DNA of 35,191 nucleotides from a virus (lineage: Duplodnaviria; Heunggongvirae; Uroviricota; Caudoviricetes). The number at the start of each line of letters is the position of its first letter. Within the stretch, counting starts at the first letter, position 1. The stretch lies in IMG/VR virus record IMGVR_UViG_2713896779_000022. The stretch is one strand, 5' to 3'. A program made the translations under genes and the position numbers. The notes under the pieces are model-generated. The model was not told the DNA's origin and did not search any database. It saw only the letters and a program-made list of their open reading frames with translations. Positions 3,053 through 8,944 of the stretch are shown in pieces.

Positions 3053-3209
3053 CTGTTCCCTCCCTGTGCGGCATGGTCGCATGTGCGTGCGGAGTGGGTT
3101 ACTGCTTTTTGTTGTCGCCGTGGCGGGAGAATAGCGCAGGGGGGAGATTACGCGCGTGGTGGGTGATGATTGTTGCTGAATCATTTAACGGATACAAGGG
3201 GCTGAAGCT

Positions 3210-4394
3210 ATGAGTGAAACTCGTTTTCATGGTGCCCGTGTTACGGAAAGTACCGACCTGGTAACAGCGATTAATGATGTTGATTCCAGTGTTATCGGTA
3301 TCGTGGCAACGGCGGATGATGCGGATGCGGAGCTGTTCCCGCTGAACAAGCCCACACTGCTGACCCGCGTCAATGACGTGCTGGGAAAATGCGGAACAAC
3401 GGGGACGCTTTATCGTGCGCTTAAGGCCATCGCAGACCAGGTGAGCACAAAGGTGATCGTCGTTCGCGTGGCTGAACACAAAGAAGAAGACGGAAAGACG
3501 CAGGATCAACTGGTTATCGGTGGTTCTGAGGATGACGGCAGCTATACGGGGATGTATGCGCTGCTTGTTGCAGAGCAGGATGAAAGCATCGGATACCGTC
3601 CGCGTATTCTGGCCGCGCCGGAGCTGGACACGGAGGCGGTAACAAAATCCCTGTGCGTGATTGCGGGTAAACTGCGCGCGTTTGTGTATGCCTCATGTCA
3701 CGGCTGCAACACGATGGCTGAGGCGATTACCTACCGCCAGAAATTCAACGAGCGTGAGGTGATGCTCTTATGGCCGGACTTCATCGCCTACAACCCGAAA
3801 AGTGGCAAAAACGAAACGTTCCCCGCGCCTGCCTATGCGTGCGGCCTTCGTGCGTACATTGACCATGAGCAGGGCTGGCACAAATCGCTGTCCAACGTTC
3901 CGGTTAAAAATGTGCTGGGGATGTCCAGGCATGTGTTTTGGTCGTTGCAGGCCGAAGACAGTGATGCCAACAGCCTCAACAACAAAGAAATCACGACCAT
4001 TATTCGTCGCAACGGGTTCCGCTTCTGGGGCAACCGCACACCGGAAACGAACGCCTACATCTTTGAGGTGTATACCCGAACCGCACAGGTGCTGGCTGAT
4101 TCAATTGCGGAAGCGCAGTTTGAAACCATCGACAGTCCACTGACGCCTGCGAACGTGAAAGATGTTATCAGTGCCATCAGGGCAAAACTGGATTCACTGG
4201 TTACTGCCGGGAAACTGATTGGCGCGGAGTGCTGGTATGACATCGTGGATAACAGCACCACGAATTTACGTCAGGGGCGCGTGCGTATTCGCTACAAATA
4301 TACGCCTGTTCCCCCGTTGGAAGACATGGAGCTTTACCAGTCGTTTACTGATGAATTCTTTGGTCCCGCATTTGCGGTGCTGGGAGGTGCCTGA
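3210..4394 (+). CDS. FI: tail sheath protein FI
   Basis: 394 aa, collinear resemblance to P2 gpFI (FPLNKP..., QEQGWHK.LSNV, LIRR.GFRFWGNRT, YTPVPPLE); RBS AAGGGG. Confidence 0.95.
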   Translation: MSETRFHGARVTESTDLVTAINDVDSSVIGIVATADDADAELFPLNKPTLLTRVNDVLGKCGTTGTLYRALKAIADQVSTKVIVVRVAEHKEEDGKTQDQLVIGGSEDDGSYTGMYALLVAEQDESIGYRPRILAAPELDTEAVTKSLCVIAGKLRAFVYASCHGCNTMAEAITYRQKFNEREVMLLWPDFIAYNPKSGKNETFPAPAYACGLRAYIDHEQGWHKSLSNVPVKNVLGMSRHVFWSLQAEDSDANSLNNKEITTIIRRNGFRFWGNRTPETNAYIFEVYTRTAQVLADSIAEAQFETIDSPLTPANVKDVISAIRAKLDSLVTAGKLIGAECWYDIVDNSTTNLRQGRVRIRYKYTPVPPLEDMELYQSFTDEFFGPAFAVLGGA

Positions 4395-4906
4395 TGGCTG
4401 TACCAAAACATCTTCGCTTTTTTACGCTGTTTGTGGATGGTGAAAACGAAGTGGGTAAGGTGACGTCCGTCACTCTGCCTAAGCTGACGCGCAAAACCGA
4501 CAGCTACCGGGGTGGTGGCATGATGGGTGCGGTAAGTATTGATCTCGGTCTGGACGACTCCGCGCTTGATGCGAGCTTTGTCATGGGGGGCGCAGTTCGT
4601 GAGCTGTTCCTTAAGTATGGCGGCACGATTGACGGCACGCTGCTGCGTTTTGCGGGTGAATACTACACCGATGCAGAAAGCGACCTGTATGAAGTCGAAA
4701 TGCGCGGACGTGTGACGGAAATTGATATGGGGGAAGCCAAACAGGGCGAAGCCACATCACACACTTACGCCATTAAAAACACCTACTACAAGCTGAGTGT
4801 TAACGATCGCCCGTTGTGGGAGATTGACCTGCTGAACTTCATTTACCGGAAGGACGGCAAGGACATTGTGCCCGATCGCATCCGTTCCGCGCTCGGGCTT
4901 GGCTGA
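4394..4906 (+). CDS. FII: tail tube protein FII
   Basis: 170 aa, start overlaps FI stop (TGATG); P2 gpFII size and position. Confidence 0.9.
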   Translation: MAVPKHLRFFTLFVDGENEVGKVTSVTLPKLTRKTDSYRGGGMMGAVSIDLGLDDSALDASFVMGGAVRELFLKYGGTIDGTLLRFAGEYYTDAESDLYEVEMRGRVTEIDMGEAKQGEATSHTYAIKNTYYKLSVNDRPLWEIDLLNFIYRKDGKDIVPDRIRSALGLG

Positions 4907-4960
4907 TAAGTAATATGCAGGCGGCGCAGTGCGTCGCCTCTGACTGAAAGGAGTTTCCTG

Positions 4961-8284: not shown

Positions 8285-8290
8285 GGAGTC

Positions 8291-8774
8291 ATGGCCATGA
8301 TGATGATCTACGGCATGTTTGTTTTTGAGCTGCGCACGCTGCCGCATCAGCAGTTACAGCAAAACAAAAGCTGGCGGCATGTGAAAAATGAGCGCGTTAA
8401 CCGTTCAGCAAGCTGGCAGTATATCGGTGCAGGTGATGATCGCATCGTTCTTTCTGGTGTGCTTTATCCTGAAATTACAGGTGGCGAAGTGTCGCTGTCG
8501 CTGCTGACCACGCAGGCGTATACAGGACGACCCTGGCCTTTGATTGATGGCTTACGGCATGTATGTCCTGACCGGAACGAATACGACCCGTTCCGAGTTT
8601 GATCGCTACGGTAAGGCGAAAAAGATAGAATTTTCACTGACCCTTGAACGCTGTGATGAGGATTTGCGGGAGCGCCTGCAATCCTCATCGTTCAGCGATA
8701 TGCTGTCCGGCTTCAAAGATAAAGTGACATCATCCCTTAACAGCGCGGCCAGTTCAGTTAAAGGGCTGTTCTGA
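8291..8774 (+). pseudogene. U: tail protein U, interrupted by a +1 frameshift near 8552
   Basis: Two overlapping frames (8291-8602 and 8544-8774) together reconstruct a ~160-aa gpU-like protein (...RPWPLIDG | YGMYVLTG...); skipping one T at ~8552 restores a single frame. Confidence 0.6.
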
Positions 8775-8944
8775 TTTAATGCTGGCCACTCATACCCTCA
8801 TACCTGGTAATAAGTGGCCAGTCTTAACACTCACCATTTGATTGCACCAGTGTTAACGATTTGTTACCGGATATCAGACGCGCTGGATAGCCAGTAGAAA
8901 CATACCATTAAAATTATTACAATAATTGGTCACATGATTATCTT

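Follow-up and report, generated by a model that had tools for sequence, protein, structure and literature searches.

The window analyzed here, the whole 35,191-nucleotide stretch of the viral record IMGVR_UViG_2713896779_000022, holds a prophage that is, by its sequence, a P88-like member of the P2 family in the genus Xuanwuvirus. The prophage lies in reverse orientation, and its tail genes FI, FII, E/E', T, and U form a plus-strand block (3210 to 8774) flanked by minus-strand D-ogr (1640 to 3052) and G to O (9472 to 20212). We found that this flipped block is the ordinary, long-fixed gene order in a widespread group of working P2-related phages. The overall best explanation, which we hold with high confidence, is one ancestral FI...U inversion fixed in the P88-like lineage, the two divergent units sharing an Ogr-type spacer.

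Genes were called with Pfam and with tblastn of all P2 proteins against the window, and both agreed with the identities, strands, and coordinates given in a preliminary description of the sequence (Table 1). All orthologues of the Peduoviridae late tail cluster were found (FI, FII, E/E', T, U, D, and ogr). A single codirectional F operon running from FI to D is absent from the window; FI...U is on the plus strand and D on the minus strand. As seen by tblastn with the P2 proteins, the plus strand also holds P (20370 to 22121) and Q (22121 to 23167), and the other minus-strand run extends from O at 20212 down to the tail fiber assembly gene at 9472. The preliminary description had placed FI divergent from D across 3053 to 3209, assuming a D start at 3052. 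The D open reading frame is open upstream to an ATG at 3184; nevertheless, 3052 is the start kept across relatives, and a GGGAGGG ribosome-binding site is found there, in agreement with that assumption.

Distribution of the flipped gene order

Window positions 1600 to 10100 were compared with phage genomes by megablast, and the D and FI proteins were searched against 50,697 phage records. The megablast matches comprised Escherichia phage 500465-2 (97%), P88 (95%), PhiR44_2, Citrobacter phage Shae_phiSM, Xuanwuvirus P884B11, and others, all of them collinear from ogr to the U stop codon. P88 and its relatives (500465-2, P884B11, PhiR44_2, Shae_phiSM, and Chuche) were 92 to 97% identical in nucleotide sequence over ogr-D-FI-FII-E-T-U, with the same order, strands, and spacer length, and in the P88 record itself the genes U, T, E', E, FII, and FI share a strand, with D opposite them at a distance of 157 bp. 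One 7.6-kb alignment joined window positions 1188 to 8779 to P88 at 95% identity, and a second, collinear alignment of 12.5 kb covered positions 11081 to 23620 at 97.4% identity; the head, lysis, and baseplate genes were 97% identical to those of P88. The assignment to Xuanwuvirus rests on this identity and collinearity over the structural genes and on a shared gene arrangement, G -> ... <- U T E FII FI / D -> ogr. P88 differs from the window beyond U, where it has a DNA invertase gene followed by an inverted tail fiber gene pair and the window has an acetyltransferase gene, and in the immunity region; of the two, only the window has an 11-bp deletion in U and a truncated int.

FI and D were start to start on opposite strands in all phage records with a D identity of at least 63% or an FI identity of at least 55%. 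These flipped-order records included Xuanwuvirus, Novemvirus phiT5282H, Reginaelenavirus 3LV2017, Reipivirus ST16-OXA48phi5.4, Senquatrovirus SEN4/5, Serratia KSP20, and many Klebsiella Kp48xx prophages, so that the order covers five genera of the International Committee on Taxonomy of Viruses (ICTV), namely, Xuanwu-, Novem-, Reginaelena-, Reipi-, and Senquatrovirus, as well as Serratia KSP20. KSP20 and the four genera other than Xuanwuvirus have the gene order described above, with cargo between G and U, and the spacer architecture, with D and FI proteins 55 to 77% identical, and they differ in the cargo between G and U, such as a DUF262 gene pair in ST16-OXA48phi5.4. The checked records at 53% identity or below were canonical, with FI about 4.5 to 5.7 kb upstream of D on the same strand; they included Firavirus, Entnonagintavirus, Gegevirus, Elveevirus, and P2, together with those phages of Pseudomonas, Ralstonia, and Mannheimia that were sampled.

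The preliminary description had recommended a search for the same arrangement in related prophages. A scan of one genome per species yielded 47 loci from more than 20 genera of Enterobacterales, of which 43 were informative, as they included DNA upstream of D. The arrangement was found in every one of these 43, with FI, FII, T, and U opposite D, ogr after D, and I/J farther out on the strand of D. Two assemblies labeled as Firmicutes, Vagococcus sp. WN89Y (locus L010) and the Planococcaceae metagenome-assembled genome UBA3378 (locus L051), carry a D that is 98 to 99% identical to that of the window prophage, and the Vagococcus assembly also has a complete flipped tail block; both are probably contamination.

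The layout might also be an assembly error or a recent inversion private to the genome of the window. The departure from the P2 order would fit such an origin, as would the otherwise decayed state of the prophage, with its frameshifted U and the insertion sequence (IS) elements at both ends. However, a 1-kb probe of the D/FI junction was contiguous in 1,355 of 5,426 complete Escherichia coli genomes, about a quarter, and was 100% identical in eight independently assembled O121 genomes. Therefore, a misassembly, which the preliminary description had raised, is ruled out. The same junction also occurs in more than 40 phage records and at the 43 prophage loci of other genera, and we regard this origin, error or private event alike, as having practically no chance of being correct.

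The phages with this order include working ones. P88 is inducible (PMC5285337), phiSM formed plaques and lysogenized K-12 (PMC6456863), SEN4/5 are myoviruses by electron microscopy and were reported to be inducible or released (PMC5261728), and the KSP20-like Serratia prophage PP4 releases particles (bioRxiv 10.1101/850248). The preliminary description had regarded the layout as a rearrangement unless a related clade had the same order as its normal, intact arrangement, and P88, phiSM, SEN4/5, KSP20, 3LV2017, and others have precisely that. The inversion went unmentioned in the papers on P88, phiSM, SEN4/5, and Serratia PP4 and in two large surveys of P2-like phages, within an incomplete coverage of the literature. 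Nevertheless, the flipped order is visible in every deposited annotation. Annotators and scanners that use P2 as a template should not flag it as a rearrangement or a misassembly, as it is normal for five genera and for P88-like prophages.

One record in this set does not agree with its description. The phiSM virions were described with long noncontractile tails (PMC6456863), and the Shae_phiSM record (OR565851.1) encodes a sheath and a tube, in DNA 93% identical to the contractile-tail block of the window. One possible account is that the labels of the micrographs, or the names, of the two C. rodentium phages were interchanged.

Origin of the inversion

According to the preliminary description, FI-FII-E-T-U-D form one codirectional operon in P2 and its relatives, from which the window departs by an inversion. 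The first part holds for P2 and most genera, but not for the family as a whole. In P2, FI-FII-E-E'-T-U-D lie on one strand with one annotated start site, whereas the window has two divergent units; the likeness consists of all seven genes as orthologues (32 to 48% identity), the TTTTTTG heptamer of E/E', and the position of ogr after D. The second part also needs to be qualified. The layout fits one flip of FI...U and the phylogeny supports a single event, yet the flipped order is an old, fixed character of a clade rather than an event in, or an artifact of, the window.

As determined by tblastn, identity to P2 was 46% for FI, 42% for FII, 32% for E, 33% for T, and 46% for U inside the block, and 48% for D, 47% for Q, 44% for P, 42% for N, and 46% for V outside it. 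In neighbor-joining trees of D, FI, and FII, rooted on one Mannheimia phage, the 19 taxa with the flipped order formed one clade in each tree, nested among canonical taxa. Therefore, a single inversion of FI...U is the simplest reading. Alternatively, the segment could have been imported from a different contractile-tail phage and inserted in the opposite orientation, as tail modules are often swapped among phages and the Pfam scores are modest for both the sheath and D. An import of this kind would, however, give conflicting trees or uneven divergence, and neither was seen: the genes of the block have diverged from P2 as far as those around it, D and FI/FII define the same clade with similar internal branching, and the geometry of the activator site of the FI promoter (PF) is the same as in canonical relatives. 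We consider a replacement of the module highly improbable.

Several points weigh against a single inversion from a canonical ancestor. The trees are simple neighbor-joining trees with one outgroup, and the polarity, with the canonical order as ancestral, rests on the order in the outgroup and on the nesting. The tree of the tape measure, a mosaic protein of which the best aligned segment only was used, left the groups unresolved. Furthermore, no breakpoint scar was found at the C terminus of U or the N terminus of D; these ends are uninformative on a scar because they vary in flipped and canonical phages alike. The dependence of the rooting on such trees also leaves room for the opposite polarity, with the divergent order ancestral and the P2-type codirectional operon derived. 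Against this, the canonical order is found in every nonenterobacterial member sampled (phages of Pseudomonas, Ralstonia, and Mannheimia) as well as in the nearest enterobacterial genera, and the flipped clade is nested among canonical taxa in the D, FI, and FII trees. A divergent ancestor is thus very unlikely, although a little less so than an imported module.

A further possibility is that the block is an actively invertible segment, a switch of the Gin/Cin/Hin type, given that a DNA invertase is found between the tail fiber genes and the block in P88 and several canonical relatives. However, no match to the P88 invertase was found anywhere in the window, and the junctions (3053 to 3209 and 8775 to 8944) have no inverted crossover repeats. 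The preliminary description had likewise seen no inverted repeats there, and we found only short pairs of 70 to 88% complementarity, no better than chance, none of which joins both junctions. Moreover, a single orientation was seen at 43 of 43 loci and in the 1,355 E. coli genomes, and the P88 invertase appears by its position to be tied to the neighboring inverted tail fiber gene pair, outside the block. The chance of an active switch is vanishingly small. The phage's own invertase was also considered as the cause of the ancestral inversion, and was rejected. In P88 its gene is outside the block, in the same orientation as in canonical relatives, and a crossover at its usual site misfits.

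Returning to the single ancestral inversion, the 5.6-kb FI...U segment would have flipped once, in an ancestor shared by several enterobacterial genera of the Peduoviridae, and its own late promoter, PF, would have turned with it. D and ogr would have stayed in place, with one breakpoint upstream of the FI promoter and the other between U and D, and the seven-gene F operon would have been split into two divergent units, FI...U and D(-ogr). By the same event, the variable cargo locus, which is between G and PF in P2, would have come to lie between G and the 3' end of U.

The D/FI spacer and its activator-type site

The D/FI spacer contains a putative Ogr-type activator site, TGTCGCCGTGGCGGGAGA (TGT-N12-AGA; Table 1), with one mismatch to the TGT-N12-ACA consensus, which in the P2 family is centered near -55, and in the same position upstream of FI as in canonical relatives. 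Exact TGT-N12-ACA occurs 7 times in the window, with 8.2 matches expected, and never at the late promoters; the site was recognized only once the AGA variant was allowed and relatives were compared. The extended form TTGT-N12-AGAA is present in both divergent spacers, at 3112 to 3131 (D/FI) and at 20287 to 20306 (O/P), where the comparison site is TGTAAGAAAACGGCCAGA. A scan of 3053 to 3209 for the sigma-70 consensus gave no match, as expected for activator-dependent promoters.

The D/FI spacer measures 156 to 172 bp in relatives. TGT-N12-A[CG][AG] was found 78.5 to 88.5 nt (median, 82.5) from the FI ATG in all 47 related loci, and CAT, the D start codon on the opposite strand, 64.5 to 76.5 nt on the other side of the site in 46 of the 47. 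The N12 takes 33 different forms over these loci while the half-sites are kept, and the background expectation is 0.01 sites per locus. In canonical relatives the PF site is 79.5 to 85.5 nt from FI, right after the terminator of the preceding operon (82.5 nt upstream of FI in P2, and about 83 to 88 nt in flipped phages). As the distance is equal, PF moved along with the block. The right half-site is ACA/CCA in P2, whereas it is AGA in the window.

Other elements of the spacer are also conserved. On the FI side of the site these are the blocks GCGTGA, GATTATCAC, and GAACTCA, and on the D side a T-run beside the site comes first, then a CGCGCGCG-type dyad, then an ATGAAAC-like element, and last the ribosome-binding site of D. 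In the D/FI spacer (related loci L004 to L053), this dyad is thus placed between the site and the D start; in the O/P spacer of four of five genera, a dyad of the same type is placed between the site and the P start. GC-rich dyads of this type are at 3080 to 3095 (D side) and at 20327 to 20339 (P side) in the window, and the P2 PP promoter has a similar GC-rich dyad, TCGCGGGGCGCGA, between the site and the P start.

The O/P spacer offers a close comparison. In P2, divergent late units about 160 to 170 bp apart have one central dyad-type site, roughly equidistant from both, and the P2 record annotates one activator-binding site that serves both pO and pP. In the flipped phages, the one corresponding site is 81.5 to 85.5 nt from O and 71.5 to 75.5 nt from P in four of five genera, and 44.5 and 55.5 nt away, respectively, in SEN5. 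In each of the five genera, the two spacers have the same variant of the right half-site (AGA or ACA), which fits one activator reading both sites. P2 has no divergent shared-site arrangement at FI, and the bidirectional D/FI site of the flipped phages is putative.

By analogy with the P/O annotation of P2, one dyad-type Ogr site in the middle of the D/FI spacer would activate both directions, and D would thereby retain Ogr-dependent late expression. We lean modestly toward the view that the spacer is a second bidirectional Ogr-dependent promoter region, in which D keeps late, activator-dependent expression. Against it, bidirectional use and the position of the D promoter are deduced from conservation and geometry, and the D side has weak -10-like elements, which differ between subgroups. 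We also favor, by a narrow measure, a broader proposal built on the same sequence comparisons, namely, that a PP/PO-like spacer in which a symmetric Ogr site would drive both FI...U and D would have made the inversion immediately viable and would give D an expression level of its own. The preliminary description had stated that the inversion separates D from the FI promoter. Indeed, D is not cotranscribed with FI...U, but it is not orphaned; it lies about 70 nt from the putative activator site that is also upstream of FI.

If the proposal is true, expression of the baseplate hub D would be set apart from that of the genes for the abundant sheath and tube. The clade offers a natural case of an operon split by inversion, in which a detached essential gene has apparently kept its activator control through a shared symmetric site. 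No statement of a bidirectional D/FI promoter was found in the searchable literature; the putative shared activator site, allowing D its own expression, is the mildly new element of this analysis, and nothing else in it is new.

Table 1. Positions of the tail block, its spacers, and its neighbors in the window
Feature	Position	Strand	Evidence or remark
ogr, Ogr/Delta zinc-finger late activator, downstream of D as in P2	1640-1900	-	Pfam Ogr_Delta, E=5e-14; 42% identity to P2 Ogr (tblastn)
D, baseplate hub/late control D protein, outside the flipped block	1943-3052	-	Pfam Phage_GPD; 48% identity to P2 gpD
Divergent D/FI spacer, 157 bp	3053-3209		Predicted bidirectional late-promoter region (PF and a promoter for D)
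Putative Ogr-type activator site	3113-3130	+	Center 69.5 nt from D ATG and 88.5 nt from FI ATG
FI, tail sheath	3210-4394	+	Pfam sheath domains; 46% identity to P2 FI
FII, tail tube	4394-4906	+	Pfam Phage_tube, E=7.5e-47; 42% identity to P2 FII
E, tail assembly chaperone	4961-5326	+	32% identity to P2 E
E+E' via -1 frameshift at TTTTTTG (5272-5278)	4961-5490	+	Slippery heptamer; -1 frame open to 5490
T, tape measure protein (annotation pipeline start, 5477)	5441-8284	+	Pfam PhageMin_Tail, E=4.5e-56; 33% identity to P2 T
U, tail protein, pseudogene here	8291-8774	+	Pfam Phage_P2_GpU split over two frames
Spacer between U stop and cargo gene, distal block junction	8775-8944		P88 homology ends at 8779
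Cargo gene, hexapeptide-repeat (LbetaH) O-acetyltransferase, at the P2 Z/fun position	8945-9508	+	Pfam Hexapep; GC profile (41% GC)
Tail fiber assembly gene (G position), end of the minus-strand structural run	9472-10089	-	Pfam Caudo_TAP, E=1.6e-39
Matching putative activator site in the O/P divergent spacer (comparison site)	20288-20305	+	

Distal junction, cargo gene, and state of the prophage copy

At the distal end of the block, homology to P88 stops five bases past the U stop codon. A hairpin with a 10-bp stem, without a U-tract, is predicted by folding at 8781 to 8822 (repeat pair I15), and no convincing terminator was found after U. The cargo gene and the tail fiber assembly gene are convergent, overlapping by 37 bp at their 3' ends. 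The low-GC cargo gene has its own sigma-70-like hexamers, and its best NCBIfam matches (EpsC, CysE, and WcaB, to serine acetyltransferase and WcaB-like models) are all far below the cutoff. The junction between U and the acetyltransferase gene was found in 120 genomes of E. coli. Transcription of the tail operon may read through into this gene, as suggested in the preliminary description, and such read-through would be a property of the cargo variant, not of the inversion. The same cargo gene adjoins a tail fiber module in phage vB_EcoM-613R2.

The copy in the window is closely related to a locus of E. coli O121 RM8352, which is 99.7 to 99.9% identical to window positions 992 to 34353. Relative to P88, U has an 11-bp deletion at 8551/8552 (lost bases, GTCGGGCAGAT) that shifts the frame after residue 87. 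Over this region, eight complete O121 genomes of E. coli match the window at 100% identity, and the other copies in E. coli have 11 bp more. U is marked as frameshifted in RM8352 by the Prokaryotic Genome Annotation Pipeline (PGAP). The P2 record annotates U as an essential tail gene; therefore, the copy in the window is probably unable to make tails. IS3-family transposase genes at 61 to 951 (plus strand) and 34397 to 35110 (minus strand) bracket the prophage, within window positions 1 to 991 and 34354 to 35191, and int is cut after about 36 codons (34247 to 34354) by an IS3-family element. In RM8352, the prophage is flanked by tRNA-Gly/Cys/Leu at one end and has an intact integrase at the other.

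In the annotation of this O121 locus, PGAP gives the same ogr coordinates as those found here and calls a GpE-family protein at 5335 to 5490. For D, it gives only 266 amino acids (1943 to 2743) and a partial opposite-strand pseudogene, within 1943 to 2796; the short D call is probably a RefSeq start-site miscall. In the tail fiber gene H (11068 to 11430), direct repeats at 11068 to 11298 and 11200 to 11430 are 76% identical, and at these repeats the window is 132 bp shorter than RM8352, which suggests variation in repeat copy number in the fiber shaft. Beside the replication gene, the window encodes a ParM-type segregation ATPase together with a partition protein (24766 to 26041, minus strand), as annotated in P88 (8856 to 10131) and RM8352. 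Finally, ogr is separated from the end of the prophage by a Hok/Gef-family toxin gene (1309 to 1449, minus strand), which P88 has as well and which is annotated in RM8352 with identical coordinates.

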